Source of the DNA: Paracoccaceae bacterium
GTDB taxonomy: Bacteria; Pseudomonadota; Alphaproteobacteria; Rhodobacterales; Rhodobacteraceae
Direction: 5' to 3'
DNA length: 64,000 nucleotides
NCBI GenBank assembly: GCA_022822495.1
Contig: JAJEBQ010000040.1
Location: 1,905 to 65,904 of the forward strand
Part shown: positions 4,563-57,629 of the stretch, piece after piece
How positions within the stretch are numbered: position 1 is the first letter of the stretch
Layout: every line of letters begins with the position of its first letter
The notes under the pieces: generated by a model
What the model saw: only the letters and a program-made list of their open reading frames with translations
The model's database searches: none
Told to the model about the DNA's origin: nothing
Translations under genes and position numbers: made by a program

Positions 4563-4614
4563 GTTCCATTCTCAGATTATTTTGCAAATAACAGAATATA
4601 TTTAGCCTTAGTGA

Positions 4615-6771: not shown

Positions 6772-6783
6772 TCTACATTCAAT

Positions 6784-7731
6784 TTAGCTGCAATCATTCT
6801 TTGGAGCACGTTCTGCAGTTTCTGATTCCAGAAATGCTTCCCCACATTTTTTTGCCAGATTTCTAACCCTTCCAATCATTGAAGCCCTTTCTATTGGTGA
6901 TATAACTCCCCTTGCATCCAACAAATTAAACAGATGTGAAGCCTTTATGCACTGGTCATACGCCGGGTGAACCATAATTATTTTTTGCCCATTTTTGGGA
7001 TCGTTTTGAGGCTGTGACAAAATGTTGTCACAAGCAGTTTCAGCATCCTTGAAATGCCGCAAAGCCATTTCGACATCACAAACATCGAAATTCCATCTGG
7101 AATATTCAGTTTCCAATTGTTTAAACACATCCCCATACGTCTTGGAAGAAGACGTACCAAGCTGATTAAAGGGCATTTTCATCACATGATCAATGCCTAG
7201 TACATACATAGCCAATCGTTCTAAACCATAGGTGATTTCACCCGATACCGGATTACATTCCAACCCACACACCTGTTGGAAATAGGTAAATTGGGAAATT
7301 TCCATCCCATCACACCATACTTCCCATCCAAGTCCAGCTGCCCCCAATGTTGGGCTTTCCCAATCATCTTCAACAAACCGAATATCGTGATACCGCATGT
7401 CAATACCAATTGCAGCAAGTGACTTGAGATAGATCTCTTGAAAATCCTGTGGTGAAGGTTTGAGGATTACTTGATATTGATAATAATGCTGTAATCTGTT
7501 CGGGTTATCACCATACCGACCATCAGTAGGTCGTCGACATGGTTGTACATAGGCAGCATTCCAAGATGCAGGGCCCAATGATCTGAGGGTTGTTGCCGGA
7601 TGAAAAGTGCCCGCTCCGACTTCCATATCATAGGGTTGAAGAATGAGACACCCATAATTTGCCCAGTAATTCTGAAGATTTAGAATGACTTCCTGAAAAC
7701 ATTCAGGTTTGGAATACGTTTTAGTTTTCAT
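6784..7731 (-). CDS. glyQ: Glycine--tRNA ligase alpha subunit
   Basis: [17 protein letters not shown]...[15 protein letters not shown] is the hallmark GlyQ N-terminus. The ATG at 7731 is preferred over the GTG-extended track ORF (7764) by alignment to the E. coli GlyQ start. Confidence 0.9.
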
Positions 7732-8225
7732 TGTAGGGGTTGTCCTAAGTTTTACCCATTCCACCCAGGAATTATTTTAATTAATTCCTAGGTGGTATCA
7801 AAAGAATAGGAAATCAATATGTTGATTATTGAGGGTACTGACTGAAGGGCACCTCTTTTTTATTATTGTTTGAGATTCCCTGATTTTCAAAAGTCGCTTT
7901 TTTAAATGTTCCATCCCCTTGAACTCTCATTTTCTGTTCACAATTCAAATTTATTCTACGGTGAACTTTAAGCCATTTTCAAATGGTATCGTGTATTTTG
8001 TTCCAGTTTAATGATCTTTGATGAACTCGGCCCAAATTGTCAGAGGTCACAAATTTAAATGGATTTTCTCAACAACCAATTCAAAGTTCGTTCTTGAACA
8101 CTAATCAAAAAATTTTCAATGAATGATTGGGTTAATATGAATTTTACCTAAACTCTTATATATTTGTTGTTTGGCAAATTAAAAATGACCACCTGAGCGG
8201 TGAACCAGAATTGATTAGACAGAAA

Positions 8226-10145
8226 ATGAAAGCTCCAAATATCCTATTCGTAATTTCTTCAATCCTGTTTCTGGGATCCGTTGGAAGTACTCAAGAGCAG
8301 AAAAAAAATACCTGGATCGAACTTTATGTCACGAATAATTACCTTGAAGCTCTCCCCATAGCAAATGTACTTAATTTTCAATTTAATGAGATCGGAATAG
8401 TAACCACGGAGAATGAGACCTATGCGGTCGTTAGTGGTCCTTTTGAATATAGTACAGCTAGAGAACAGTTAGAGCTAATTTACACTAGTCCTTATGGGGA
8501 ATCCTTGCCTGCAAAATTAACTGAGAGTTCGAATTATAGACTATTCGTTTGGTCAAAGGGAGCTGTCGTTGAAGAGGAAATCTTGCAAGAGGAAGAAGAA
8601 CCGGCAACAAATGAAGAGGACATTCGTATAACAGACTTTCTAGAAATGATGAGTGACCCTTCAAATCAGGAAACATCAGAAAATAGTGACAACAACAATG
8701 TTCCAATAGATATCTTTTCGAATGAAGATCAAATCGATAATGAATCTGATTTGATTGGTACACAAGAAAACCATTTTCAACCACAGGATGATGATATAAC
8801 AATTGATTCAGAGGAAATAGAATATCATCAATCACATACCCCGTTAGTGAATGAATTGAAATTTTCTTCAATCAATGAGAAAAAACAAATCCAACTGGCG
8901 CTAAGGATGGCTGGGTTGTATTCCGGAAATGTCGATGGCCTGTTTGGGCCGCAGTCCGAAGCAGCTGTTTCCTTATACCAAAAGCGATATGGTGACGAAG
9001 AAACCGGTACACTTACACCACAGCAACAGGCCCGATTGTTTTCAGAAACGGAAAATATAATTGGCTTTGCAGAGTCCAAGATGTTGACAGACGATAAGCT
9101 TGGACTCAAGATCATATTACCTACTGCCTTGTTACACCTGTCGGAAATAGCGTACCCCTATGTCATACTTTCTCCCGTAGGGTTTCGAGATATTAATGTC
9201 GTATTGATTAGCATGGATGGCGGCAAACCAGGTCTGAGAGCACTTTATTCAAGTTTATTAAGACATGGTGAAATTCCAAGTGAGGGAAATCAATTTGAAA
9301 ATGACAGATTCAGAATTTCTTATTCTAATTTTGAACATAATTTCGTTGCCAGTGCTAGATTATTTAGCGACAGAATCAGAGGAGTAATCATTTCCTGGCA
9401 TCCAGACCAGGATTATTGGATGAAAGAATATTCTCAAATCATTGCTGGCAGTCTTGGTGAAGTAAATAGAAGCACAAGATTTGAATTTGAGGATACAACC
9501 AATATGGTTAATAATCTCAGGTTACTTGACCAGAATAATAACCTTGAGCCAAAGCTAAGCTCATCAGGTTTTTTTGTTTCATCAGATGGGGATATACTTA
9601 CAAGTTATGGCAATGTTGAGGAATGTTCCTTTATTAGCGCTGATTTCAATCAACCAGTGCAGATCCACGATGTTTATCCAGATCATGATTTAGCTCATTT
9701 AAAGCCCTTAAATAGAATAATTCCTCTCAAGTTTGCCGAGTTGAAAAATAAACCCGAAAGACACAAAACCGATGTTGTATTAAGCGGATATTCATTTGGT
9801 GGGTTGGTTAAGGAGGCTTCAATTACCAGAGGGAAGTTAGTAAATTCAATTTCTGATTTAAAAAGCAGCGAACGTTATATCGTTGAGTTTGAAGTTACCG
9901 ATGGTGATTTTGGAGGACCGATATTAGATGATACAGGATCGGTAATTGGCATGTTATCCAGGGCACTTCCCCAAGGGAAAATTCTGCCAACCAATATCCA
10001 CATGGCTCAAACTTCAGAAACCATGGTCAATCTCCTGGGTGAAGGTGCTTTGGATACTGTTACGAGCACAAAATCAAGTTCACTGGATTTAAAACAAATC
10101 AGTAGATTGGCTCGTGACATGACTGTTTTAATCCGATGTTTTTAA
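8226..10145 (+). CDS. Secreted multidomain protein: SPOR-like region, acidic linker, PG_binding_1 domain, C-terminal degenerate trypsin-like (S1C) domain
   Basis: Signal peptide MKAPNILFVISSILFLGSVGS. PG-binding repeat LALRMAGLYSGNVDGLFGPQSEAAVSLYQKRYG. Chymotrypsin-fold motifs SSGFFVSSDGDILTSYGNV, HDLAHLKP and GDFGGPILDDTGSVIGM, with the catalytic Ser and His substituted. Confidence 0.6.
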   Translation: MKAPNILFVISSILFLGSVGSTQEQKKNTWIELYVTNNYLEALPIANVLNFQFNEIGIVTTENETYAVVSGPFEYSTAREQLELIYTSPYGESLPAKLTESSNYRLFVWSKGAVVEEEILQEEEEPATNEEDIRITDFLEMMSDPSNQETSENSDNNNVPIDIFSNEDQIDNESDLIGTQENHFQPQDDDITIDSEEIEYHQSHTPLVNELKFSSINEKKQIQLALRMAGLYSGNVDGLFGPQSEAAVSLYQKRYGDEETGTLTPQQQARLFSETENIIGFAESKMLTDDKLGLKIILPTALLHLSEIAYPYVILSPVGFRDINVVLISMDGGKPGLRALYSSLLRHGEIPSEGNQFENDRFRISYSNFEHNFVASARLFSDRIRGVIISWHPDQDYWMKEYSQIIAGSLGEVNRSTRFEFEDTTNMVNNLRLLDQNNNLEPKLSSSGFFVSSDGDILTSYGNVEECSFISADFNQPVQIHDVYPDHDLAHLKPLNRIIPLKFAELKNKPERHKTDVVLSGYSFGGLVKEASITRGKLVNSISDLKSSERYIVEFEVTDGDFGGPILDDTGSVIGMLSRALPQGKILPTNIHMAQTSETMVNLLGEGALDTVTSTKSSSLDLKQISRLARDMTVLIRCF

Positions 10146-31013: not shown

Positions 31014-33389
31014 TTAGTTGATGGTAGCCTGATGGCTGGATTCAGCGCTTTCTATCTTGATTGTATCCAAAGGTCTTGGTTTTTCAGTCAACGCAATTTT
31101 CAGAACATCGAAAACATTTGCGACAGGAATGATTTCCAAGGGTTCCTTAATATCATCAGAAATCTCAAACAAATCTTTCTTGTTGCCTTCAGGTATTATG
31201 ACAGTCTTGATACCACCTCTGACGGCTGCAAGCAGTTTTGCTTTCAACCCACCTATCGGTAGGACACGTCCTCTGAGGGTAACCTCACCCGTCATTGCAA
31301 CATCTTTTCTAATGGGAATGCCGGTTAATACTGACACAACCGAAGTTACCATGCCAACGCCCGCTGAGGGCCCCTCTTTTGGTGTGGCACCTTCTGGAAC
31401 GTGGAAATGAATGTCAATTTTCTCATACTTCGAGGGTTCGACTCCTATTTGATGCGAGATTGACTGCACATAGGAAGTCGCGGCCGTAATGGATTCCTTC
31501 ATAACCTTGCCCAAAGTTCCAGTGGCATTCATCTTGCCACTACCTGGTACTACCGTTGATTCGATCAGTAACAAGTCACCGCCAGATTGGGTCCACGCGA
31601 GGCCGGTGGCAACTCCAATACTGTCTTTTTCTTCAGCAAGACCATATCGGAATTTTTCCAGGCCAAGAAAACTCTCAAGGTTTTTGAGATTGACACTGAC
31701 TTTTTTTGTATCGCCACGAACAATCATGGTCAGGGATTTTCGCATGGCCTTCTCGATTTCACGCTTGAGGTTTCGAACGCCAGCCTCACGCGTGTATTTG
31801 CGGATGATTTCTTCCACTGCCCGATCGCTGATTTTGAATTCACTCGACTTTATGCCCTGCGTTTCCTTTAATTCTGGAATTAAGTGGTTTTTGGCAATCT
31901 GCAGTTTTTCATCTTCGGTATACCCATCAAGATGAATAATTTCCATTCTGTCCCTCAGGGGTTCGGGGATATGATGCAGATAATTGGCTGTGGTAATAAA
32001 CATAACCTCAGAGAGGTCATAATCAACATCCAGGTAGTTATCATGAAATTTGCTGTTTTGTTCAGGATCAAGAACTTCCAACATGGCACTGGCGGGGTCA
32101 CCCCTTGCGGCACCCATTTTATCAATTTCATCCAAAAGAATAAGTGGATTTATTGAGTTTCTCTTGCGAAATGATTTGATGATTCGGCCGGGCATCGAAC
32201 CAATATAGGTTCTTCTGTGTCCCCTGATTTCTCCCTCATCATTCAAGCCACCCAGAGATATGCGAACAAATTCCCTTCCCGTAGCTCTGGCTACAGATTG
32301 ACCAAGCGAGGTTTTACCAACCCCCGGGGGTCCAACAAGACATAATATGGAACCTCCAACATTTCCTTTTCGTTTCTGGACGGCGATGAATTCAATAATT
32401 CGTTCCTTGACCTTTTTCAGACCGAAATGGTCTTCATCCAATACTTTCTCAGCCTTGGGTATATCACTCTGTATATCCTGTCTGATGCCCCACGGAAGTT
32501 CGAGCAGCCATTCAAGATAATTACGGGAGACCTGTACTTCGGGTCCATTGGAATTGGAGGTCTTTATTTTCTTCAACTCCCCTTTGGCTTTGGCCAGGGC
32601 TTCTTCGGAAAACTTTGTTTCATTAATTCTTTTTTCGAGCTCTGCAATCTCAGAAGTTTCTTCCTGCTCACCCAATTCCTTTTGAATAGCCCTCATCTGC
32701 TCATTTAGAAAATATTCACGATGGGTTTTTTCCATTCTTGATTTAACCTTGCTCTTGATGTCCATTTCGAAATCAAGTAGCGAGATTTCGGCTTCAAGCA
32801 TTTCCAGTATATTTTTCAGCCGATTCGTAACCTTGGGATCTTCCAGCAAAGTTTGCTTCACTGATACTTCAGAATGTATGGCACCTGCGACAAGATCTGA
32901 AAATCTGGCAGGATTTTGTTCTTCTGCTACCTGTTCTGCCAATTCGTTACTGATGGTTTTTTTTACAGATGCATATTTTTTGAATGATTCACGAGCAGTT
33001 TTCAAATAAACATTTTGCTTGGCCGAGTTGTCATTTATTTCCGGATATTGTTCAACGGCGACTTCAATGAAATTTCCACTGGTAATCCATTGTTTGACCC
33101 TGACCCTGTGAAGGGCTTGCACCATGACCTTGATCGTGCCTTCTGGCAGTCGCAGGAACTGGATGATATTGGCCAATACTCCGACATGATAAACCGAATT
33201 CTCATCAGGGTCTTCAGTTGTCTGTTCTTTCTGGGCACAAAGCACCAATTGCTTTTCGGTGTTAACAGCTTTTTCCAAAGCAACTATGGACATTTCTCTT
33301 CCGACATAGAGAGGAACAACCATATGGGGAAATACAACAATATCTCTTAATGGTAAGAATGGAATTGTTTTTTCTTCTAATTTCATCAT
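31014..33389 (-). CDS. lon: ATP-dependent Lon protease
   Basis: N-terminal LPLRDIVVFPHMV, Walker A GPPGVGKTS, and protease site PKEGPSAGV. Confidence 0.95.
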   Translation of the reverse strand: MMKLEEKTIPFLPLRDIVVFPHMVVPLYVGREMSIVALEKAVNTEKQLVLCAQKEQTTEDPDENSVYHVGVLANIIQFLRLPEGTIKVMVQALHRVRVKQWITSGNFIEVAVEQYPEINDNSAKQNVYLKTARESFKKYASVKKTISNELAEQVAEEQNPARFSDLVAGAIHSEVSVKQTLLEDPKVTNRLKNILEMLEAEISLLDFEMDIKSKVKSRMEKTHREYFLNEQMRAIQKELGEQEETSEIAELEKRINETKFSEEALAKAKGELKKIKTSNSNGPEVQVSRNYLEWLLELPWGIRQDIQSDIPKAEKVLDEDHFGLKKVKERIIEFIAVQKRKGNVGGSILCLVGPPGVGKTSLGQSVARATGREFVRISLGGLNDEGEIRGHRRTYIGSMPGRIIKSFRKRNSINPLILLDEIDKMGAARGDPASAMLEVLDPEQNSKFHDNYLDVDYDLSEVMFITTANYLHHIPEPLRDRMEIIHLDGYTEDEKLQIAKNHLIPELKETQGIKSSEFKISDRAVEEIIRKYTREAGVRNLKREIEKAMRKSLTMIVRGDTKKVSVNLKNLESFLGLEKFRYGLAEEKDSIGVATGLAWTQSGGDLLLIESTVVPGSGKMNATGTLGKVMKESITAATSYVQSISHQIGVEPSKYEKIDIHFHVPEGATPKEGPSAGVGMVTSVVSVLTGIPIRKDVAMTGEVTLRGRVLPIGGLKAKLLAAVRGGIKTVIIPEGNKKDLFEISDDIKEPLEIIPVANVFDVLKIALTEKPRPLDTIKIESAESSHQATIN

Positions 33390-33505
33390 TTGGCTTTCTT
33401 AATATTTTCCTGCCAAAATACTTGGTATGAAATTTATTTATTTCAACTTCAAATCCTCAGGAATTTTTGTCGACGTAATCAAATAAACAATTCACAATAG
33501 TCTTT

Positions 33506-34606
33506 TCATTCTCTGAAATTATTAGCGAATTCGGTAAACGTACCTTCTCTAATTTTATGGCGTATCTTGGACATCAACAGCTGATAGTACCGTAGATTAT
33601 GCCACGTCATTAACATTGACGAAATAATCTCATTTGATTTAAATACATGATGAAGATATGCCCTTGTATAATTGCGACAAGCAAGGCAATCACACTTCTC
33701 ATCCAAGGGTCGATTATCGTCCCTGTATCGAGCATTCTTTATATTGATCAACCCACTCTGGGTAAAAGCCTGGCCATTTCTTCCTGATCTGGTTGGCAGA
33801 ACACAGTCAAACATGTCAATTCCACGCTTTACGGCCCCCACGATATCTCCAGGTTTACCTACACCCATCAAATATCTTGGTTTATTTTCCGGCAGATCGA
33901 CAACTGAATAATCCAAAACTTCAAACATCTTTTCCTGGCCTTCACCAACAGCCAATCCGCCTACAGCATAACCATCAAACCCAATTTTTGTTAAATGGTA
34001 AGTACTTTCTTCACGCAACTCCTTGTAGACTGATCCTTGTTGGATACCAAAAAGGGCAAAACCTGGCCTGGAGCCAAAAGCTGTTTTACTCCTAACAGCC
34101 CAACGCATGGATAACTCCATTGATTTTCTTGCGACCTTTTCTTCTACTGGATATGGGGTACATTCGTCAAAACACATGGAAATATCAGACCCGAGCAGCC
34201 TTTGTATTTCGATTGATCTTTCCGGTGATAAAAAGTGTTTTGAACCATCAATAAAGGATCTGAATTCGACTCCCCTTTCACTTAACTTGCGGAGTTTTTT
34301 CAAACTCATTACCTGAAACCCTCCTGAGTCAGTCAAAATCGGTTTATGCCAATTCATAAACCTGTGTAAACCACCCAATTGTGATATCCGTTCAGCTGTT
34401 GGGCGCAACATAAGGTGATAGGCATTACCGAGAATAATCTGGGCACCTATTCCAGCAACATTTTCAGGCAGCATTGCCTTGACTGTAGCTGATGTGCCAA
34501 CGGGCATAAACACGGGTGTATCTATAAACCCCTTGGGGGTAGATAGCCGACCTAATCGTGCGAAGCCATCTGTATTGGAAGTTTCAAAGGTAATTGAACT
34601 TGTCAT
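33506..34606 (-). CDS. tgt: Queuine tRNA-ribosyltransferase
   Basis: [18 protein letters not shown], and the Zn site [16 protein letters not shown]. Confidence 0.9.
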
Positions 34607-34688
34607 CCAGAGTTTTCTCTTTCTATGGAAATTTTGAGAAATTAAGCTATTTTTACTATACCGATCAATAATCAGGGACTAAATAAAC

Positions 34689-35048
34689 ATGTTTGATGAT
34701 GGATTGATGGAAGGTGCTCCACTAATTAAGCCCTCAAGTGTTGACCATCCGTTATATGAATCAATAGTAAATGCCTGCAGGTCAGTCTATGATCCTGAAA
34801 TCCCTGTTAATATCTATGACTTGGGTCTGATCTACACCATTGAAATAAATCAGGAACAGGATGTTCACATTATTATGACACTTACAGCACCCGGATGTCC
34901 TGTTGCAGAGGATATGCCAGGATGGTTGGCAGAAGCGGTGGTTCCACTTGAGGGAGTAAATAAAGTGGATGTTGAACTGACCTGGGATCCGCCATGGGGT
35001 ATGGAAATGATGTCAGATGAAGCACGACTAGAACTTGGATTTATGTGA
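34689..35048 (+). CDS. DUF59/SufT-like Fe-S cluster assembly protein
   Basis: VYDPEIPVNIYDLGLIY and TLTAPGCP motifs of the MIP18/DUF59 family. Confidence 0.75.
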   Translation: MFDDGLMEGAPLIKPSSVDHPLYESIVNACRSVYDPEIPVNIYDLGLIYTIEINQEQDVHIIMTLTAPGCPVAEDMPGWLAEAVVPLEGVNKVDVELTWDPPWGMEMMSDEARLELGFM

Positions 35049-35078
35049 TTTTTTTGTTATTATTGAGCAATCGTACAG

Positions 35079-35426
35079 ATGTTTGAGATCCCTGGTAAAA
35101 AAGCTGTTTCCTTAACGCCTTCTGCAGTTACTCAAATCCTGAATTTGATGAATAAGACGGATACTTTGGGGTTGAAAATCGGGGTCAAGAAAGGTGGTTG
35201 TGCAGGGATGGAATATACCATGGAATATGCGACAGCAATTGATATACATGATGAAGTTGTCGAGCAAGATGGAGCAAAAGTCATTATTGCACCCATGGCT
35301 CAAATGTTTCTGTTCGGAACAGAAATTGATTATACTTCATCGGTACTTGAAAGCGGCTTCAGATTCAATAATCCCAATGTTGCTGAAGCGTGCGGGTGCG
35401 GCGAATCAATCAAATTCAAAGAATAA
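35079..35426 (+). CDS. HesB/IscA/ErpA-family iron-sulfur cluster insertion protein
   Basis: GLKIGVKKGGCAGMEY plus the C-terminal CGCGESF-like motif (ACGCGESIKF). Confidence 0.85.
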   Translation: MFEIPGKKAVSLTPSAVTQILNLMNKTDTLGLKIGVKKGGCAGMEYTMEYATAIDIHDEVVEQDGAKVIIAPMAQMFLFGTEIDYTSSVLESGFRFNNPNVAEACGCGESIKFKE

Positions 35427-35434
35427 ATTTTTAT
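35427..35434. repeat. Target-site duplication, left copy (ATTTTTAT)
   Basis: Identical 8-mer abutting the outer edge of each terminal inverted repeat (partner at 36434-36441). Confidence 0.7.
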
Positions 35435-35596
35435 GGGGATTACATACTTGAATATACAGAAAATTTTTAGGTCTATTCATAGGCATTCCCCCCTAAACAC
35501 TAATATTTTAATCCGAATATAGGTTTTAGGTATCAAACGTTATTACTGTGTATCACCAATTGGAATCCATTAATATTGGATTTAGAGGATAATACT

Positions 35597-36244
35597 ATGC
35601 AAAAAAATCCAAATAACGTTTTTGTATATTGGGACAACTCCAATATCTTTCATGAGGCCCAAAGATTGGCAGAAGAGAATAATGGATCTACAGATGCGCG
35701 ATATAGGGTTAGGATTCACTTTAACAATTTACTCAATCTTGCCTTAGCAAACCGAACATTACAATCAGCTTTTGCAGCAGGTTCAATTCCACCCGATCTA
35801 CAGAATTTATGGAATAGATTGGAAAATGAGGGCGTAGAGGTAAGACTATTTGACAGAGGAAATTCAAATCTGGGCGAGCAGCAAGTTCCCGATGGTTGGC
35901 TTCGAGAAAGAATGCTTGAAGATGCTCTTCGAAATGATAAAAACCCTGGAATCGTAGTTTTATTGACTGGTGACGGTTCTGGGTACAGCCAAGGGAGCGG
36001 TTTTCATACTGCTCTTGAACTTCTGCATGAAAAGGGGTGGGGAATAGAATTACTTTCATGGAGACATTCTTGTAAAAGATTGATGCGAGAGTGGGTTGAA
36101 ATAAACGGGGTGTTTATTGCATTGGACGATTTTTATAATTCAATTGCCTTTCTTGAACCCTCTCGACCAGGTCAACCTCTTGCACATCCACGTGATCCTG
36201 AACAATTGGATTTAACTCGTCGGCCAACTGTCAATATGGGTTAA
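35597..36244 (+). CDS. NYN-domain (PIN-like fold) predicted nuclease
   Basis: VFVYWDNSNI (first Asp strand), QQVPDGWL and VVLLTGDGSGY...GWGIELLSW fit the NYN/LabA-like pattern. The ATG at 35597 is preceded by AGAGGA, and the track start at 35576 is a TTG extension. Confidence 0.65.
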   Translation: MQKNPNNVFVYWDNSNIFHEAQRLAEENNGSTDARYRVRIHFNNLLNLALANRTLQSAFAAGSIPPDLQNLWNRLENEGVEVRLFDRGNSNLGEQQVPDGWLRERMLEDALRNDKNPGIVVLLTGDGSGYSQGSGFHTALELLHEKGWGIELLSWRHSCKRLMREWVEINGVFIALDDFYNSIAFLEPSRPGQPLAHPRDPEQLDLTRRPTVNMG

Positions 36245-36252
36245 GCAAAAAA

Positions 36253-36325
36253 AGGGATTACCTACTTGAATATACAGAAAATTTTTAAGTCTATCCATTG
36301 GCATTCCAGAAACCCTCTAAACACT
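36253..36325. repeat. Internal direct copy of the cassette's left end (vs 35435-35501)
   Basis: GGGATTAC(A/C)TACTTGAATATACAGAAAATTTTTA(G/A)GTCTAT(T/C)CAT(A/T)GGCATTCC matches 50/54. The match continues with an indel to CCCT(CT)AAACACT. Confidence 0.85.
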
Positions 36326-36433
36326 TTCAAATTTTTTCCTCCCTACCACTGTTCTCTAACAGTAGCACTAAAAGTATTACTAACAACGATGAAAAGGGAC
36401 ACAGCAAATTGTATATCCAAGTATGCAATCCCC

Positions 36434-36441
36434 ATTTTTAT
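36434..36441. repeat. Target-site duplication, right copy (ATTTTTAT)
   Basis: See the left copy at 35427-35434. Confidence 0.7.
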
Positions 36442-36509
36442 CCCTAACACTCCTTAATGCTCACTCATTAAAATTTCTAACCAAAGTAAATCAGAAAAAT
36501 AGAGGACGT

Positions 36510-37247
36510 ATGAAAAACCTTATTGCCGGAAACTGGAAGTTGAAAGGATCGCAAAATTTGGCGGATTCCTATCTTAACCATTTATCGGAAAACAAACCTG
36601 TGAATTGTACCTTGCTCGTATGCCCGACATTCGATCTCCTTGAGTATATCAGTGAAAAATGGAGCCAGGATTTTGGATTTTTGGGTGCACAGGATTGTTA
36701 TCATGACGACAGCGCATTTAACGAGGGATTGGCATCGGCGGATAAAGTTGCAAGGACGGGTGCTGGTTATATTATCCTCGGTCATTCAGATCGAAGACAT
36801 AAATGCCAGGAAACAAGTGGGCTTGTCCGTAAGAAGGTTAATCTCGCCTGGAAACATGGATTGCTACCAATAGTTTGCGTTGGTGAAAAAAGTGAAGAAC
36901 GCAAAAGCAATTTAACCCAGGAAGTTGTTAAAAAACAAATTATTGAAAGTATTGATTTTGATCATTTGGATGGTTCCTTCGTCATAGCCTATGAACCAGT
37001 TTGGGCCATCGGTTCCGGTAACATACCAACCATGGAAGAAATTGGTATTGTGCACGATGAAATCAGAACTTTACTTATAACCAAAATTGGATCCCATCAA
37101 GGTAAAAATATCCCGATCCTTTACGGCGGTTCAGCTGATTCCAACAATGCGGAACAAATCCTTGCAGTTAACAATGTAAATGGTTTGTTGATTGGCGGAG
37201 CATCACTGGATATCAAAGGTTTTGGGACCATAATAAACAAAGCATAA
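36510..37247 (+). CDS. tpiA: Triosephosphate isomerase
   Basis: MKNLIAGNWK (catalytic Lys), GHSDRR (His), and AYEPVWAIGSG (Glu). The ATG at 36510 is preceded by AGAGGA. The track's longer ORF starts inside the mobile element. Confidence 0.9.
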   Translation: MKNLIAGNWKLKGSQNLADSYLNHLSENKPVNCTLLVCPTFDLLEYISEKWSQDFGFLGAQDCYHDDSAFNEGLASADKVARTGAGYIILGHSDRRHKCQETSGLVRKKVNLAWKHGLLPIVCVGEKSEERKSNLTQEVVKKQIIESIDFDHLDGSFVIAYEPVWAIGSGNIPTMEEIGIVHDEIRTLLITKIGSHQGKNIPILYGGSADSNNAEQILAVNNVNGLLIGGASLDIKGFGTIINKA

Positions 37248-37345
37248 GAACAAATCTGTTGGATGAAATATGTATTTCAGATTGATGAGGATATATCAGC
37301 CTCGGCCCTTAATTCATTTGACCTGTTCGGTCGAACCTCAGTTTA

Positions 37346-38413
37346 TCAGCTTATTCTAATCCTTTTCTGATCGTATATTAGTGCGGCCATGCGATAAAAT
37401 CCGTGCATCATTTTGGAATAGGGTGTGAGCAGAAAAAATGTGAGTACTGTCCCAAGATGGATTGGCAAGAACCATTCCACAAGCGAACTCCCTGTGGCTG
37501 CATAGAGCATTAGCCCAGTTGCACTGACAGAAAAAAGTAAAAGGATGAAAGCCATTTCACTTCCCCAAATTTTGGCGTGTCCCAGATCACGATCTGCCTT
37601 GGTTTTTATCCATGCCAGGCCTGCTGTTCCCAAACACAACAAAACACCTCCTGGTACTCCCAATAATTTTGGTAAACTATACCAGGTATAAGGGGCTTTC
37701 AAGCCAAACCCATAATGAAGGATTGTACCAGAACACGTAGAACCAAAACACATCATAAAACCCCAGAAGGTCATCTTGTGCAAAACAGACCGTGTTTTGG
37801 TAAAACGATCCTCGTCTTCAAAATTACAACCATCCCCATGACCACCTTTTAGATTGCGTAACGATATGGCATTTAGACTTGCCTGCCACATCTCTGCCAT
37901 AGTAATACGGCCACCTCCAATAAAATGCCAATAACGCCTGATAGCAATTCCAACTGCCAAAAGAGGTACTAGAAATGCAGGTAAAAATATTATCACCATA
38001 AGCGTATGTGACATAAAAGTATAAAAACCCTCTCCGTTGGATGGTGGTAAAGCGCTTACCAGCCAAAACAGAAAGGTAAACGACACCACCATTAGTAAGG
38101 GCATGACAACACCTGCCCGATCAAACAAATAAGCAAACCCTTGCGGCCATGATAATTGTTTCCAACTTTCTTGCCGCAGTTCACCTAGGGCAGAGGGTAA
38201 ATTCAAGGCAAATTGATGGGGTGGTGTATATTGGCAGGCATAATAGCACCCCCGGCAGTTATGGCACAAATTCGCCAACTGTAAAAGACTGCCATCTGAG
38301 AAACTACGTTCGGCAAACATGGCAGGAAAAACCGAACAATAACCTTCACAATATCGACAAGCGTTACAAATTTCCACTTGCCGACGGGACTCAACCATGG
38401 CGCTATCGAACAT
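37346..38413 (-). CDS. tcuB: Tricarballylate utilization 4Fe-4S membrane protein TcuB
   Basis: CNACRYCEGYCSVFPAM and CHNCRGCYYACQY cluster motifs followed by multiple TM helices. It lies directly after tcuA. The ATG at 38413 is chosen because of the GAAGGGG upstream. Confidence 0.8.
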   Translation of the reverse strand: MFDSAMVESRRQVEICNACRYCEGYCSVFPAMFAERSFSDGSLLQLANLCHNCRGCYYACQYTPPHQFALNLPSALGELRQESWKQLSWPQGFAYLFDRAGVVMPLLMVVSFTFLFWLVSALPPSNGEGFYTFMSHTLMVIIFLPAFLVPLLAVGIAIRRYWHFIGGGRITMAEMWQASLNAISLRNLKGGHGDGCNFEDEDRFTKTRSVLHKMTFWGFMMCFGSTCSGTILHYGFGLKAPYTWYSLPKLLGVPGGVLLCLGTAGLAWIKTKADRDLGHAKIWGSEMAFILLLFSVSATGLMLYAATGSSLVEWFLPIHLGTVLTFFLLTPYSKMMHGFYRMAALIYDQKRIRIS

Positions 38414-39809
38414 ACTTTGCTGCCCCTTCTCCGGCAAGCCGGCCAAAAACTGTTCCTATGGTCATACCAAACCCCGCGAGATAACCCTCTCCCAATATAG
38501 AACCTGCCATGATCTCCCCTGCTGCCCAAAGATTTTTTACAGCACCATGCTCGCCCTGCACCTGGGCATTACAATCAACCTTCAAACCAAGGTAGGTAAA
38601 AGTAACCCCAGGTCGTAATTCGTACCCGTAGAACGGTGGTTCATTTATCGGGCGTGCCCAATTGGATTTTGGTGGACTTAGCCCATGGGTGGCAAGTCCA
38701 TCAAGTTCGGTAGGATGAAATTCACCAGGCCGGCAGGCCTTATTGAAATCATTCAGGGTACTGACAGTCTTTGATATAGGGAGTTTCATCGTTTGGGCCA
38801 ACTCTTTGATTGTAGCACCTTGCATTGGTGGAAAAACTGACGGCATAAACAATTCGACTGATTTTGCATCTATAAATGCATATCCAACCTGATCTGGTTG
38901 TTCTGCTATCAATCGTCCCCAAATGGCATAGCGTTTTGGCCATACATCTTCGCCTTCATCATAAAATCGTTCACCATTCTTATTCACGACGACTGAAAAG
39001 GGTACGCAATCAAGTCGAGTAACTATCCCCCCATCAAATTTTGGCGCTCGACCATCAATAGCCACCGCATGACATTGGGTTGGGTCGCCAACTGTTTTGA
39101 TGCCCTGATCTATCAGGTCTTTCAAAACCACTCCACGATTATAGGGTGTCCCACGTATCAGGAAATTACGAGCCGCTTCACCCCAAGCCTTGGCCAACCA
39201 ATCAATATCAGCTTGGAATCCTCCTGAAGCGACAACAACCGCCTTTGGTTTCAGGGTGATAATTTCATTATCAATTTGAACCGTCACCTCAGTAATCTTC
39301 TTTCCATCATAAGCAAGGTGCAACACATTTGCGTTATAAATTACTTGAACCCCAATGCTTTCAGCTGTGCGATAATATGCATTGACAAGCGCTTTGCCTC
39401 CACCCAGAAAAAAAGCATTTGTACGATTAAGAGAAAGCGTACCAGAAAGTGGAGGTTGAAATCGAGCACCATGTGAAGCCATCCAGTCATATGCCTCCTT
39501 CGAGGCACGTATACACAAGCGGGCAAGTTCTTCATCCGTTTTTCCTTTTGTCACCTTCAGGAGATCTTCAAAATATTCAGTCTCGCTATAAGACCCGGTC
39601 AAAACTCCCATAGGTTCCTTATGCATACAGCGAAAGTTTCTCGTATGACGGCTATTCCCGCCACGATAATGTTTGGGAGCGCTTTCCAATAGTAAAACGG
39701 ATGTGCCTTCTTCTTTGGCAGTTAGAGCAGAACAAAGTGCCGCATTACCGCCACCGGCAATCAATACATCTGGACTGGTATTGAGATTACTATTGGACAT
39801 GGCAGTCAT
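38403..39809 (-). CDS. tcuA: FAD-dependent tricarballylate dehydrogenase TcuA
   Basis: DVLIAGGGNAALCSALTAKEEG...RGGNSRHTRNFRCMH matches the TcuA signature as I recall it. 468 aa. Confidence 0.8.
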   Translation of the reverse strand: MTAMSNSNLNTSPDVLIAGGGNAALCSALTAKEEGTSVLLLESAPKHYRGGNSRHTRNFRCMHKEPMGVLTGSYSETEYFEDLLKVTKGKTDEELARLCIRASKEAYDWMASHGARFQPPLSGTLSLNRTNAFFLGGGKALVNAYYRTAESIGVQVIYNANVLHLAYDGKKITEVTVQIDNEIITLKPKAVVVASGGFQADIDWLAKAWGEAARNFLIRGTPYNRGVVLKDLIDQGIKTVGDPTQCHAVAIDGRAPKFDGGIVTRLDCVPFSVVVNKNGERFYDEGEDVWPKRYAIWGRLIAEQPDQVGYAFIDAKSVELFMPSVFPPMQGATIKELAQTMKLPISKTVSTLNDFNKACRPGEFHPTELDGLATHGLSPPKSNWARPINEPPFYGYELRPGVTFTYLGLKVDCNAQVQGEHGAVKNLWAAGEIMAGSILGEGYLAGFGMTIGTVFGRLAGEGAAKYVR

Positions 39810-39893
39810 GCCATTATCGGCAAAAGGAGGTAGAAAGGTTTAAGGTCTGGCCCAAAAACCTTTCTCCGGTCAATTTATTTTCAATTAAAGATT

Positions 39894-40871
39894 TTAGAGA
39901 GCACCAGCTTCACGGTAGTACCTTTCAGCTCCAGGATGAAGTTGAATCATGCCTCTTAGTTGAGCACCAAAATTTACATCCAATGCTTTGGCCCATGGCG
40001 CTGTGGATGTAACCTGTTCGATGTTTTCCCAGAATCCCTTTGTTATCTGATAGACTGTCTCTTCATCCAAATCGGCTCGAACTGCAATTCCTACAGCGGT
40101 ATTGAAGGAAGCAACCGCAGTGTCATTTTTCTGACCATCATATTGACCTGGTTCAACCATATCGACATATCTGAATGCTCCAAGCCATTTCGTGACCTGT
40201 TCGCCTTCGGAACTTTCAGGTCCAAGGAACCTTACATCTTCGGTTTCAGTAAACTGAATGAACTGTCCGCATGGATCAATACACCCATTTACGTAGACGT
40301 CAATTTTGCCATCAAGAAATGCCTGAAAACCTGTCTGCCAATTAGCCTTAATTGCTTCATAGTCCTCATTGGCTACTAGACCGGTAGTGGATTCTACCCA
40401 TCCTTTGGCGGCGTTATATGCTCCACCTCCTGCAGGACCCAGAAATACCGATGCGCCCTCAATATCATCCAATAGTTCGATATCACTCCCAGCCCTGACT
40501 GCAAAGTGGTATTGACCATAAGGATACCACATCAAGAGCCTTAGATTTTTTGCCAGCTCAGGAGCTTCCGCTTCCTTGGCATACATGGCCTTGCCTCCTG
40601 CCATCAAATTATAGACAACAGGTGAGGTCATGGACAAGTCCAGGTTTCCACGCCCAACTTCCATCATGTGGATTGTCGCCGCTCCTCCACCCGACACTTC
40701 AATTTCAATTCCCTCGACGTTATCTGTCACGATATTGGCAAAAGTAGCCATGGTAATGGCGGCCCCCAAACTTGGGGCAATGGTTGCCATCCTTAATGTT
40801 TGACTTTGAGCGTTGGCAGAAAATGCCATGCAAGAGATGGCGACGACCATCACAATAAATTTTTTCCCCAT
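39894..40871 (-). CDS. TAXI-family TRAP transporter solute-binding protein
   Basis: Signal peptide. About 325 aa, the size of a periplasmic binding protein. It lies immediately downstream of a 708-aa fused 4TM/12TM TRAP permease, an arrangement typical of TAXI-TRAP. Confidence 0.7.
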   Translation of the reverse strand: MGKKFIVMVVAISCMAFSANAQSQTLRMATIAPSLGAAITMATFANIVTDNVEGIEIEVSGGGAATIHMMEVGRGNLDLSMTSPVVYNLMAGGKAMYAKEAEAPELAKNLRLLMWYPYGQYHFAVRAGSDIELLDDIEGASVFLGPAGGGAYNAAKGWVESTTGLVANEDYEAIKANWQTGFQAFLDGKIDVYVNGCIDPCGQFIQFTETEDVRFLGPESSEGEQVTKWLGAFRYVDMVEPGQYDGQKNDTAVASFNTAVGIAVRADLDEETVYQITKGFWENIEQVTSTAPWAKALDVNFGAQLRGMIQLHPGAERYYREAGAL

Positions 40872-40881
40872 TTTTACTCCT

Positions 40882-43008
40882 TTAAAAATTCTTTCCCAGG
40901 GGTGAAAGACCCTTTGGTTTTGTAATTCTGTCGATCACAATTAAAGTAATGGCTCCCCCCAGTGCAATCAAGCCGATTGTCACATTGGGAACTAGGACTG
41001 CAATTCCTACGATGGTTCTAAACAATCGGTTAATAACTGATAATGACCTTTTATCGAACCCTGCCAGCGCGGAGGCCAACAACCACATCGCGATCGAAAA
41101 AGCCAAAATAATCCAACCTAATTCGCCCCAACTCACAGTTGAAATATCTATCATGGCTGGTGAATTTACAGGCTTTCCTTCGACCCACTCAAAGAGCACC
41201 TGAAGTTTGTAAATTGCTGCCGGATGATAAATAAAAATAAAGGGAATCAAGAATCCAGCTAATGATAACCGTGCAGCGCTCAAGCCTGTACTTATTGGAT
41301 CTGCCCCGGCAATAGGAGCTGCTGCAAAAGCAGCGAGCGCAACTGGGGGAGTAACTGTTGAAATCACGGCAAAATAGACAACGAAAAGATGAAGTGACAA
41401 AAGTGGAATTCCAACCGCTTCAATACCCGAGGAAAGAGCGATCACGATGATAAAATACGTAGCCCCTGGAGGAAGCCCCATACCAAGAATGATTGATCCC
41501 ACGGCTAGGACAATCAATACACTAAACAACGGCCCATTTGCTGCCTGAGCCAAAAGGAGCGATAATCTTCCGCTAAATCCGGAAACTTGAATCAATCCCA
41601 CAATTAATCCAATTCCAGCAACAATGATAATTATTGATGCTGCCATTCGGCCAGCTCTGACAAAAGCAGCATATACCCTTGACCAGGAACGAAATTCAGG
41701 AAACAAAACCAGTGAGGCTATTATGGCAGCGACGAAACCAAAAAATCCTGCCTTGGGAACCGATGGTTGGGCAAAGAGAAAATAGGATAGAACAGCCAAA
41801 GGTACTATAAATACCAGACACTTGATTTGTTCCTGCCGAGTTAAGTTTGGTCTGCTTGCACGTGGCAGAGGTCCTATACCTTTTTTTCGTGCTTCAAAAT
41901 ACACGGTCATAAATGTACCCATATAATAAAATAGTGCAGGGATTATGGCTGCAATGACAATGTAGCGATACTCAAGCCCTATCTGACCAGCCACAAAAAA
42001 AGCAACCACTCCCATTACAGGTGGCATAATTTGACCGCCGGTTGAAGCCGACGCTTCAACAGCACCAGCGAACGCTGGTTTAAAACCGGATTTCTTGATT
42101 ACCGGTATAGTCATTGTCCCGGTAGAAACAACATTTGAGATGGCTGCACCCGATAGCATCCCAAAGAGGGCTGAACTGGCAACGGCTGCATGGGCAGCAC
42201 CTCCTGTTAAACCACCGGTAAGTCGATTGGCTATTTTCAAGAGAAGTTCACCTGCACCGGAAGCCATCAGCACAGAGCCGAACACAATAAATACCAGGAC
42301 ATTACCTGACACAACCTGCAGGGGACGACCGAACATACCACCTGTCTGTGACCAGAAATTAAGGACCATGGCTCGCAAACTTTGCTCAAGTGTCGAACTG
42401 GAACCTGCAAAAATACCTGTCCATTCCGGCAGATAACCTCTTATAAAGAAATAAAGGATCCAAAAAATGCAAAAAGCAACTATGAATGAACCAAAATACC
42501 GATAGGTCACGTAAAGGGTGATGATTGTTGCTATGGGAAAAAGAAAATTATCTATTGGATTCGCTGTTGGCAACAATCCTGCATCTACGGAAAACAGTTT
42601 GGCAATCCAAAGAATAAATACAGATGTGGATAGAAGACCCAAGAACCAATTAACCCATTGGAATTGAGGGGATTTATGAAGTGTCAGGAGTGATATAGCG
42701 AAGGAAAGGATAATCGGCAGTCCCAAGATCAAACCAGTGGGTAACAAAAAACCACGTTCAAAAATTCGATATGCTGCCCCTAACCAATGTTCTCTGAAAA
42801 GGACCCTTTGTTCACGGCGTGATAATTCTGAAAAATCGGTTGTGGTCTGTTCAATTATCCACCGAACGAACTCTGACATTGGTCCTGAAGCTGCATAAAT
42901 CAGGATAATCAGGGCAAACCCAACACAAAGAAAATTTTCAACTCGGGTGGTTATATTGTTGGGACCAGCCAGAGGTGGAGTCATTTCAAGGTTTTTATTG
43001 ACAGCCAT
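40882..43008 (-). CDS. TRAP transporter fused permease (TAXI-type, DctQ/DctM-like fusion)
   Basis: 708 aa and highly polytopic. The size and adjacency to the TAXI binding protein support the call. Confidence 0.75.
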   Translation of the reverse strand: MAVNKNLEMTPPLAGPNNITTRVENFLCVGFALIILIYAASGPMSEFVRWIIEQTTTDFSELSRREQRVLFREHWLGAAYRIFERGFLLPTGLILGLPIILSFAISLLTLHKSPQFQWVNWFLGLLSTSVFILWIAKLFSVDAGLLPTANPIDNFLFPIATIITLYVTYRYFGSFIVAFCIFWILYFFIRGYLPEWTGIFAGSSSTLEQSLRAMVLNFWSQTGGMFGRPLQVVSGNVLVFIVFGSVLMASGAGELLLKIANRLTGGLTGGAAHAAVASSALFGMLSGAAISNVVSTGTMTIPVIKKSGFKPAFAGAVEASASTGGQIMPPVMGVVAFFVAGQIGLEYRYIVIAAIIPALFYYMGTFMTVYFEARKKGIGPLPRASRPNLTRQEQIKCLVFIVPLAVLSYFLFAQPSVPKAGFFGFVAAIIASLVLFPEFRSWSRVYAAFVRAGRMAASIIIIVAGIGLIVGLIQVSGFSGRLSLLLAQAANGPLFSVLIVLAVGSIILGMGLPPGATYFIIVIALSSGIEAVGIPLLSLHLFVVYFAVISTVTPPVALAAFAAAPIAGADPISTGLSAARLSLAGFLIPFIFIYHPAAIYKLQVLFEWVEGKPVNSPAMIDISTVSWGELGWIILAFSIAMWLLASALAGFDKRSLSVINRLFRTIVGIAVLVPNVTIGLIALGGAITLIVIDRITKPKGLSPLGKNF

Positions 43009-56139: not shown

Positions 56140-57417
56140 CTATCGTACTACAAATTCAGCTCTTAGTTTTATAACTTCGATAATATCATTAAAAACATTG
56201 GAGCAGATCCCGTCTGCTTCAAGCACAGACTTTAACCTTGTGGCAGCCTCTATAATGTTAGATTTAAAGTAATTAATCTGATCGTTCAATGTTGCCTGGG
56301 CTGCTTTTGTGTCTGGTACAAGCCTTTGGAAATGTCGTAAAAAAACATCATTTGGTCTGTACTTTCCGCCAATTTTCATCGCCATATTTTGATGTAAATC
56401 AGGGTAGATTGCTGTGCTCATAAGATCATATGCGGGTGCCAATTCTGGTTTATTACCAACATAAATTAATGAGAAGTTTTTTCCATGTGCATCTGAATTT
56501 CCAATGAGGTAGTTAAAAATAATCAAATGCAAGAATTTAATTTGATTGACGACTGGACGACTAAAGTTCTGATTTATCAACTCGAGACACTTTGTTACAT
56601 CGGGCCCACCTTCGCGTTGGTACTTGAAGCTAGGCATTATTCCTAATGCTTGACAGAAATCTTCTTGATGTATTCGCTCTACCATCCCGCTTTTAGCAAT
56701 CTTTCTATCATATCTTTCTATTAAATAGAAAGGTATTTGTTTAACCGAATGAATTGATACTTCAGGTACATCCAGGTGCATCATCTTTGCCAATTTCATG
56801 CAAAACAATTCATTATGAACACTATCAACCACCCTGTCTATAAGCGGTTTTAGGATATGAGTGGTTGGCATCCCTCCTTTATGCAAGAGTACACGCCCAT
56901 TCTTGAAACCGACAGCGAGTTTATGCTGTGCACCGGCCAGTGATAACCGATAACCATTATCACCTGCCAGCATTGGACGATTTTTTAATAAATCCAGTAT
57001 TTCTACTAATTTAGCATCGTCCAACACCTCAACATCCCCTTCATTGGTTGCAGGAGGTTTCGTACCCTGAGGATATAATGACAAAGCTCCTGCACAATCT
57101 CCTCCAACCACTTCCAATAAAGAAAAAGAGTTGCTACTAGATATACCTAAATTCTTTGCCAATCGAATGCGTATGCTCTCATCCGGCAATAGTCCTGAAA
57201 AGAAGGCTTCTACTCGTTTACCTCTATATTTTCCCTTGAAGAAATCATTTGAAAACGAGCTCGAAAAAATCTCCCCCAAAGGAAGCGATAAGGATATGCC
57301 CCCACCTCCAGATGCAAGGTGATTTTTGTCGTAAGTAAACTCTAATTCACCACTTTCCTCTTGAGTGAGGATTCCAACAAGTGTGTCATGAAGGTAAACA
57401 TCTAGATCGTTTTTCAC
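56140..57417 (-). CDS. hipA: HipA-family serine/threonine kinase toxin
   Basis: Catalytic loop GNSDAHGKNFS, with HipA N-terminal coupling-domain pattern VYLHDTLVGIL. The start is set at the GTG at 57417, which overlaps the hipB stop as GTGA. The track's 57489 start would overlap hipB by 76 nt. Confidence 0.8.
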   Translation of the reverse strand: MKNDLDVYLHDTLVGILTQEESGELEFTYDKNHLASGGGGISLSLPLGEIFSSSFSNDFFKGKYRGKRVEAFFSGLLPDESIRIRLAKNLGISSSNSFSLLEVVGGDCAGALSLYPQGTKPPATNEGDVEVLDDAKLVEILDLLKNRPMLAGDNGYRLSLAGAQHKLAVGFKNGRVLLHKGGMPTTHILKPLIDRVVDSVHNELFCMKLAKMMHLDVPEVSIHSVKQIPFYLIERYDRKIAKSGMVERIHQEDFCQALGIMPSFKYQREGGPDVTKCLELINQNFSRPVVNQIKFLHLIIFNYLIGNSDAHGKNFSLIYVGNKPELAPAYDLMSTAIYPDLHQNMAMKIGGKYRPNDVFLRHFQRLVPDTKAAQATLNDQINYFKSNIIEAATRLKSVLEADGICSNVFNDIIEVIKLRAEFVVR

Positions 57418-57629
57418 AGTTTTTTGCCGTTCAAATGTATATCTATCCCCAGCATAGAAACAATCTGGATTGCTTTGCCGATATGGCACGACTGTTTTCC
57501 ATTTTCCAGTTCGCGAACGAATCTAACTCCTACCCCTGAATAACCAGCTAATTGGAGCTGCGTCAACTTTTGTTCCTTACGAGCTTCCTTTAGAATTTTT
57601 CCTAATTTCATAATTTTATTCTCATTCAC
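57414..57629 (-). CDS. hipB: HipB-like XRE-family HTH antitoxin
   Basis: HTH LTQLQLAGYSGVGVRFVRELENGK. GTG start preceded by AAGGAAG. It is coupled to hipA. Confidence 0.75.
   Translation of the reverse strand: MNENKIMKLGKILKEARKEQKLTQLQLAGYSGVGVRFVRELENGKQSCHIGKAIQIVSMLGIDIHLNGKKL

Follow-up and report, generated by a model that had tools for sequence, protein, structure and literature searches.

This work concerns a 999-bp element in the genome of a Rhodobacteraceae bacterium (assembly GCA_022822495.1, contig JAJEBQ010000040.1), located in a stretch of 64,000 nucleotides that was analysed as a whole and is referred to below as the window. The element occupies positions 35435-36433 of the window, in the spacer between an iscA-like gene and the tpiA gene, and carries a gene for a NYN-domain protein, a predicted nuclease, between short terminal inverted repeats. 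The stop codon of the iscA-like gene (35424-35426) is followed immediately by the 8-mer ATTTTTAT, the element comes right after it, and a second copy of the same 8-mer adjoins the other edge, 68 nt before the ATG of tpiA (36510). A preliminary description of this DNA had already placed the element between the two genes and had pointed out its inverted ends and the identical 8-mers at its outer edges; all of these were confirmed, the ends now being given as 24 bp long with two mismatches. The coordinates of the features are collected in Table 1.

The element and its empty site

The left end of the element, GGGGATTACATACTTGAATATACA (written as GGGGATTACATACTTGAATATAC(A) at 35435-35458), and its right end, which reads GGGGATTGCATACTTGGATATACA on the minus strand, are complementary at 22 of their 24 positions. 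When the 24-bp end was searched for in the window with up to three mismatches allowed, three matches were obtained, as compared to none in 100 dinucleotide-preserving shuffles, and the ends are thus beyond what chance would produce. A scan of the cassette for promoters and terminators gave no signal above the shuffled expectation.

The third copy of the end, AGGGATTACCTACTTGAATATACA, lies inside the element. It is in direct orientation with respect to the left end and begins directly after the stop region of the NYN gene. It resembles the left end beyond the terminal 24 bp, as far as about 36325-36342, the identity being 93% over 54 nt and, when one indel is allowed, 80% over 89 nt. Together with the right end, this internal copy delimits a 181-bp unit resembling a MITE (miniature inverted-repeat transposable element): it has terminal inverted repeats, a small size and no coding capacity, its small open reading frames (ORFs) being without a Pfam match, and its predicted fold as an RNA is a long hairpin, at -33.9 kcal/mol with z = -2.5. 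The architecture of the element is therefore a composite one, which consists of a left end, the NYN gene, and then a second left end paired with the right end. The preliminary description had seen a cassette with two ends; the outer ends stand, and the composite layout with its third end had been overlooked.

Table 1. Features of the element and of the genes on its two sides (positions in the window; the last column gives the basis of each assignment)
Feature	Position	Strand	Basis
HesB/IscA-type Fe-S biogenesis protein gene, flanking host gene outside the element	35079..35426	+	Pfam PF01521
Target-site duplication of 8 bp, left copy (ATTTTTAT)	35427..35434	.	direct reading; L019 has one ATTTGTAT here
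Left terminal inverted repeat GGGGATTACATACTTGAATATACA, 24 bp	35435..35458	+	same 24 bp in L008, L009, L011, L012
Left subterminal region	35435..35514	+	direct repeat at 36253-36342
NYN gene module (ribosome-binding region, ORF, A-run after the stop)	35571..36253	+	blastn
NYN-domain ORF, 215 aa, passenger gene	35597..36244	+	Pfam PF01936
Internal third copy of the end AGGGATTACCTACTTGAATATACA	36253..36276	+	direct orientation; repeat comparison and window search
MITE-like unit of 181 bp (copy of the left end, about 133 nt, right end)	36253..36433	.	inverted pair with arms 133 nt apart
Right terminal inverted repeat, GGGGATTGCATACTTGGATATACA on the minus strand	36410..36433	-	repeat comparison and window search
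Target-site duplication of 8 bp, right copy (ATTTTTAT)	36434..36441	.	direct reading; L019 empty-site alignment
tpiA, flanking host gene outside the element	36510..37247	+	Pfam PF00121

Evidence on the nature of the element comes from relatives in which it is absent. These loci were obtained through a search for TpiA homologues, followed by retrieval of the contigs encoding them. In one of them (L019), the flanks are 97.5-97.7% identical to those of the window, the 999 bp are missing, and the distance from iscA to tpiA is 80 nt. Positions 1-3928 of L019 align with window positions 31509-35434, and positions 3921-8738 with 36434-41247; the single 8-mer at 3921-3928, ATTTGTAT, is shared by the two alignments and corresponds to both copies of the 8-mer in the window. 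Because a single 8-mer stands at exactly the predicted junction, which is the usual proof of such an event, the 999 bp are an insertion accompanied by an 8-bp target-site duplication. The preliminary description had predicted such an empty site, and had staked its claim on relatives without the insert having a single 8-mer at the junction. L019 does have it, and its spacer, GAATAAATTTGTATCCCTAATAC, differs from the empty site that was predicted by three substitutions, of which one is inside the 8-mer. In two more distant relatives (L020 and L021, whose TpiA proteins are 72-75% identical), iscA is directly followed by tpiA and the site is empty as well.

The cassette itself is 100% identical in all five assemblies compared (the window and L001-L004), the flanks of L001-L004 differing by 0.4-0.5% from those of the window. 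This invariance was considered as a sign of a recent arrival and was rejected, since the neighbouring kilobases are equally low in diversity.

The same ends around other cargo

The species representatives of GTDB were scanned with a degenerate form of the 24-bp end. Five stretches were returned, all from metagenome-assembled genomes (MAGs) of Alphaproteobacteria, with Rhodobacteraceae or Paracoccaceae as the label of four; in four of the five (L008, L009, L011 and L012) the match is genuine and the end almost unchanged. Further copies with different 8-bp flanks, which the preliminary description had anticipated, are thus present in other MAGs. One is a 1,297-bp element in L012 (5989-7285), in which the inverted partner of the end has three mismatches and the 8-bp duplication, AATTTTTT, is perfect. 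It carries two ORFs without a Pfam match, one for a 153-aa protein whose N-terminus is signal-peptide-like, the other for a hydrophobic product of 76 aa. In L009 (5023-6259) the element is 1,237 bp long; the inverted copy at its other end has one indel, and the flanks, AATTTTTA and AATTTATA, match at 7 of 8 positions. Enclosed are an ORF of 59 aa, a second of 87 aa that is coiled-coil, and a tRNA-like gene of 85 nt. L008 and L011 have solo ends only. No transposase is encoded in, or adjoins, the elements and ends of L012, L009, L008 and L011.

The tRNA-like gene of L009 (5963-6047) deserves a separate remark. It is called tRNA-Pro(AGG) by ARAGORN, has a long variable arm that is unusual for a tRNA-Pro, and is an odd cargo for an element of this type.

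When all nine ends were aligned, conservation was found to be limited to the terminal 24 bp, the inner sequence being different from one to the next. Judged from the alignment, this pattern is the one that would be expected of a transposase-binding site. A motif conserved across MAGs in the midst of unconserved sequence would look just the same if it were the binding site of some other protein, and the repeats of the window could be regarded as host regulatory or structural sequence, of the repetitive extragenic palindromic (REP) or operator kind, around a NYN gene that has long been resident. This idea is ruled out by the empty site: the 97.6%-identical relative L019 lacks the whole 999 bp and has a clean single 8-mer in their place. 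Elsewhere, moreover, the motif occurs in inverted pairs, with 8-bp direct repeats, around unrelated genes. We give the idea virtually no credence.

The 8-mers that flank all of the elements consist of A and T only. This is also of consequence for another explanation, namely that the element arrived by site-specific recombination (as an integron cassette, through Xer or an integrative mobile element exploiting Xer (IMEX), or by a tyrosine or serine integrase) or was acquired from foreign DNA through homologous recombination. That the cassette has one gene and lies in a spacer between genes would suit such a route, and the long imperfect hairpin into which the 181-bp unit can fold is superficially attC-like. 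But the empty site reveals an exact 8-bp duplication of host sequence, which integron or Xer recombination does not make; the same ends are found elsewhere at unrelated A/T-rich 8-mers with duplications of their own; no attachment core is common to the insertion sites; and no integrase was seen near the element when the large ORFs of the window were read by eye. The integron gene cassette in particular was rejected on account of the 8-bp host duplication and the A/T-only junctions without a shared core. An arrival by any of these routes appears extremely improbable.

The NYN gene and its relatives

The NYN gene is the only ORF in the 999 bp that Pfam recognises (PF01936, E = 4.7e-7, with 30.9 bits where 24.2 is the cut-off), and the four other small or antisense ORFs of the element have no Pfam match. 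The ORF list and Pfam thus agree with the preliminary description, in which the cassette had one recognisable gene and no recombinase. The AlphaFold2 model of the protein has a mean predicted local distance difference test (pLDDT) score of 81, and the top matches that Foldseek returned from PDB, 6fdl and 5yaa, are NYN domains of MARF1. Residues D13, D86, D99 and D177 are invariant among 29 sequences and D126 is nearly so. A profile match above the cut-off, a PIN-like fold and conserved acidic residues all place the protein among the NYN-domain proteins. It has no match in NCBIfam, PHROGs or the PDB sequences, and none among the PADLOC defence models at E <= 0.1.

The family to which it belongs is large: there are more than 2,000 homologues of about 208 aa, which are 60-70% identical across phyla, or about 63%. 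The ratio of nonsynonymous to synonymous substitution rates (dN/dS) is 0.055 and 0.10 against the two closest homologues, and the gene is therefore kept by purifying selection. The functions of bacterial NYN proteins are essentially untested (PMC5499597); this one is probably an RNA-targeting nuclease that is kept as an accessory gene, possibly one for defence or a toxin.

The only part of the element that shares nucleotide homology with NYN genes in other contexts is 35571-36253. In blastn, the identity is 89.6% to L005 (window 35583-36253) and 79.6% to L007 (35571-36250). The homologue in L005 (P0001, 94% identical in amino acids; 5987-6660, found also in L006) is located between valS and fur, 9 nt past the stop of valS. 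Its nucleotide homology to the window is confined to 35583-36253; it starts 14 nt ahead of the ATG and runs 9 nt past the stop, and the locus has no inverted repeats. The bare NYN ORF of L005 looks like a relocation with ORF-precise borders. Other homologues without these ends include P0009 (70% identical), which is inside a cobalamin gene cluster and adjoins a MazE-like ORF, and P0015 (69%, in a genome of 60% GC), which adjoins an IS630-type transposase and a HicB gene. P0054 (63%, labelled at its source as Gemmatimonadetes) adjoins genes for Fic, DNA methylase, HATPase_c_3, TIR_2 and AAA_15 proteins.

Stand-alone NYN proteins of this family are spread over MAGs of Rhodobacteraceae, Gammaproteobacteria and Gemmatimonadetes (P0001-P0120; loci L022-L027, L031 and L034), and often adjoin defence or mobile genes such as those of Fic, DNA methylases, TIR_2, AAA_15, MazE-like and HicB proteins and the IS630 transposase. 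The distribution suggests a frequent horizontal transfer of this putative NYN effector across these MAGs. Two truncated paralogues, of 169 and 173 aa, are found on one 1.15-Mb contig (L033 3001-3510 and L032 3001-3522). In L033, an IS5-like element (1619-2993, with DDE_Tnp_1 and 25-bp terminal inverted repeats, AAGGGAACCTCT...) ends 8 bp upstream of the truncated ORF. In L007 (5618-6973, with the same arrangement in L030), an 82%-identical NYN gene follows a yjeF-like gene in the midst of small terminal-inverted-repeat elements with related ends. A MITE is located at 5627-5785 (GGGAATTATATCCTTGG / GGCGATTATATACTTGG), a sequence like a terminal inverted repeat at 5912-5929 upstream of the NYN gene, and a 181-bp MITE at 6784-6964 (GGGAATTAYATACATAACTACACA) downstream of it, in a layout that echoes the window. 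No clean target duplications were seen around the NYN genes of L007 and L030.

The preliminary description had offered, as its second reading, that the NYN protein itself takes part in mobility, and in its full form this reading would make it a new PIN-like/NYN transposase or homing nuclease that acts on the 24-bp ends. It would explain why the NYN gene is the sole gene of the element while a cognate transposase was found nowhere in the searched sets; NYN genes occur at high identity in many unrelated contexts, the homology in L005 is ORF-precise, and in L007 and L030 the 82%-identical gene is again amid MITEs with related ends (GGGAATTAYATAC...). But each of the two, ends and gene, occurs without the other. 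The same ends in L012 and L009 enclose other cargo and no NYN gene, and NYN homologues of 94%, 70% and 69% identity do without these ends. The NYN protein is for this reason a passenger and not the mobility enzyme. The model also fits the RNase NYN domains of MARF1 best, with no DNA-binding or integrase-like module in either the structure model or the fold matches, and a staggered duplication of 8 bp is typical of DDE transposases. A survey of the PIN-like superfamily reports no NYN or PIN-like transposase (PMC5499597). That the NYN protein drives the movement is, all in all, very improbable, and the second reading is not supported.

Probable mobilisation in trans, and a comparison with related systems

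By definition, mobile insertion cassettes (MICs) consist of passenger genes enclosed by inverted repeats related to those of an insertion sequence (IS); they lack a transposase and are activated in trans by a cognate one (PMC4337579, PMC5444012). The element of the window has IS-type terminal inverted repeats at both ends, a passenger gene without an internal transposase or recombinase, and a target-site duplication backed by an empty site, and the same ends are found at other loci with other cargo (L012 and L009). It is in our judgement highly probable that it is a non-autonomous MIC, moved by a transposase that is encoded elsewhere. The first reading of the preliminary description, IS-type ends with a passenger mobilised in trans, has thus gained support from the empty site in L019, from the other cargo and from the lack of a recombinase.

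The insertion most probably proceeded as follows. The outer 24-bp inverted repeats would serve as the binding and cleavage sites of the trans-acting transposase, presumably a DDE-type enzyme that makes 8-bp duplications. The enzyme would make an 8-bp staggered cut in the A/T-only ATTTTTAT of the 80-nt iscA-tpiA spacer, and the repair of the stagger would duplicate the 8-mer. As to how the NYN gene came to be enclosed, a 181-bp MITE of this end family probably landed in the A-run past the NYN stop; a second left end was probably present upstream of the gene; and it was probably the outermost pair of ends, one left and one right, on which the transposase then acted, so that the whole unit moved together. 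The landing of the MITE past the stop is suggested by two observations: the stretch homologous to NYN genes elsewhere reaches no further than 36253, which is exactly the start of the internal end, and in L005 an A-run, GCAAAAAAATAAAT, follows at the same position. An A-run of this type would be a suitable A/T target for a MITE.

Several points weigh against the MIC reading. The first concerns the missing partner. The preliminary description had envisaged a full-length IS with the same ends, and none was found in the GTDB representatives, the JGI metagenomes, IMG/VR, PLSDB or the window, the part of the 3.18-Mb source genome that could be read. No autonomous IS with these ends accompanies the five GTDB stretches. 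The scan of the JGI metagenomes gave six matches, each of them a solitary end with an odd GC content and 3-5 mismatches, which were judged to be due to chance, as were the two matches in IMG/VR; a blastn search of PLSDB gave matches at E >= 2 only. A lead from L008, a remnant of an IS1595-type transposase, was followed by a homologue search that gave one 44-aa fragment and proved a dead end. The copies of the ends are also very few, 1-2 per genome, and current activity is unproven for that reason. The 181-bp unit has no target-site duplication of its own, its flanks being GCAAAAAA and ATTTTTAT, and no second full copy of it is present in any fetched locus. The order of the capture events, finally, is a reconstruction. 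On one of these points the capture history itself makes a prediction, since an internal unit without its own duplication (GCAAAAAA versus ATTTTTAT) is what it would leave behind; the want of a duplication and of multiple copies, by which the unit falls short of a typical MITE, fits a last move as part of the 999-bp composite.

The L008 remnants can be described as follows. Two transposase remnants lie side by side at 3538-3935, about 2 kb from the solo 24-bp end. The one on the minus strand is an IS1595/ISXO2-like C-terminal piece of about 55 aa, with a match to PF12762 below the cut-off; the one on the plus strand has an ISAs1-like N-terminal motif (FEGIEDPRTINAKFHDL...), a call made by eye only. 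A large ORF separates the IS1595-like remnant from the solo end, and the remnant has no matching terminal inverted repeat and is not bounded by the ends. In the window itself, a by-eye reading of the large ORFs showed no recombinase or transposase. One of the ORFs, of 449 aa on the minus strand (56140-57489), has an N-terminus that is HipA-toxin-like, again by eye only.

The same-end cassettes sampled here are all without a transposase and differ in their cargo, which is the NYN gene, a predicted secreted protein, or a tRNA-like gene together with small ORFs. One might see in them a family, so far undescribed, of cassettes that shuttle cargo in sponge-associated Rhodobacteraceae, with a divergent or unrecognised transposase, and in the NYN protein a new stand-alone defence or toxin effector that is spread in part by them; we consider this more ambitious proposal unlikely. 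The residual novelty is in the transposase family behind the ends and in the widely transferred NYN protein, the MIC being a known kind of element, and no new mobility mechanism is revealed. What the locus does provide is a natural example, complete with filled sites, empty sites and cargo variants, of the packaging of accessory genes between IS-type ends. It illustrates how accessory genes are dropped into housekeeping operons in the streamlined genomes of uncultured symbionts, and it draws attention to a highly conserved, horizontally spread family of stand-alone, predicted NYN nucleases that are often found near defence or mobile genes.

Among the known MICs, MIC231 of Bacillus cereus reportedly has the ends of IS231. 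The MICs of Bacillus cereus are also cited as examples in the literature (PMC4337579), together with the Xanthomonas MICs that have TnXax1 ends and carry genes for transcription activator-like effectors (TALEs) and type III secretion effectors (T3SEs), and the MIC with qnrS2 that is found on IncU plasmids of Aeromonas; in the qnrS2 mobile insertion cassette element (MICE) of pAC3, a MITE is held inside the cassette (PMC4337579, PMC5444012, PMC2266710). The element of the window shares with these MICs the short IS-type inverted repeats, the passenger genes, the lack of a transposase, the duplications, and the occurrence of the same ends with varied cargo. Its internal MITE-like unit has a parallel in the cassette of pAC3, and its third end in the Xanthomonas MICs, which can have more than two inverted repeats. 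It differs from them in that its ends match no identifiable IS and have no known cognate transposase, and in that its cargo is an uncharacterised, predicted NYN nuclease instead of a resistance or virulence gene. It resides in an uncultured lineage of Rhodobacteraceae which, going by the sample names, is probably symbiotic with sponges. The Tn3-type MICs have a 5-bp duplication, in contrast to the 8 bp found here.

Duplications of 8 bp are made by the IS families IS1595, ISL3, IS256, IS6 and IS66, which are the candidate parents of the ends. The element resembles them in the length of the duplication, in the G-runs with which the ends start, and in the A/T-rich target, although no transposase of these families is found beside the 24-bp ends. 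With MITEs and MITE-flanked composites, such as the integron mobilisation units, it has in common a 181-bp unit with terminal inverted repeats, no coding sequence and the potential to form a hairpin, and composite movement would likewise be open to a gene that has a left end on one side and a full MITE on the other. In this case, however, the upstream partner is a left end of about 80 bp and not a complete MITE, and the 181-bp unit, unlike MITEs in general, has neither its own duplication nor a second copy in the fetched loci. The NYN protein, for its part, resembles other members of PF01936 and of the PIN-like superfamily, LabA-like and MARF1-like proteins among them, in its Pfam match, its acidic residues and its MARF1-like predicted fold; it is set apart from them by being a stand-alone protein, with no OST-HTH or RRM partner and no sequence relative in PDB.

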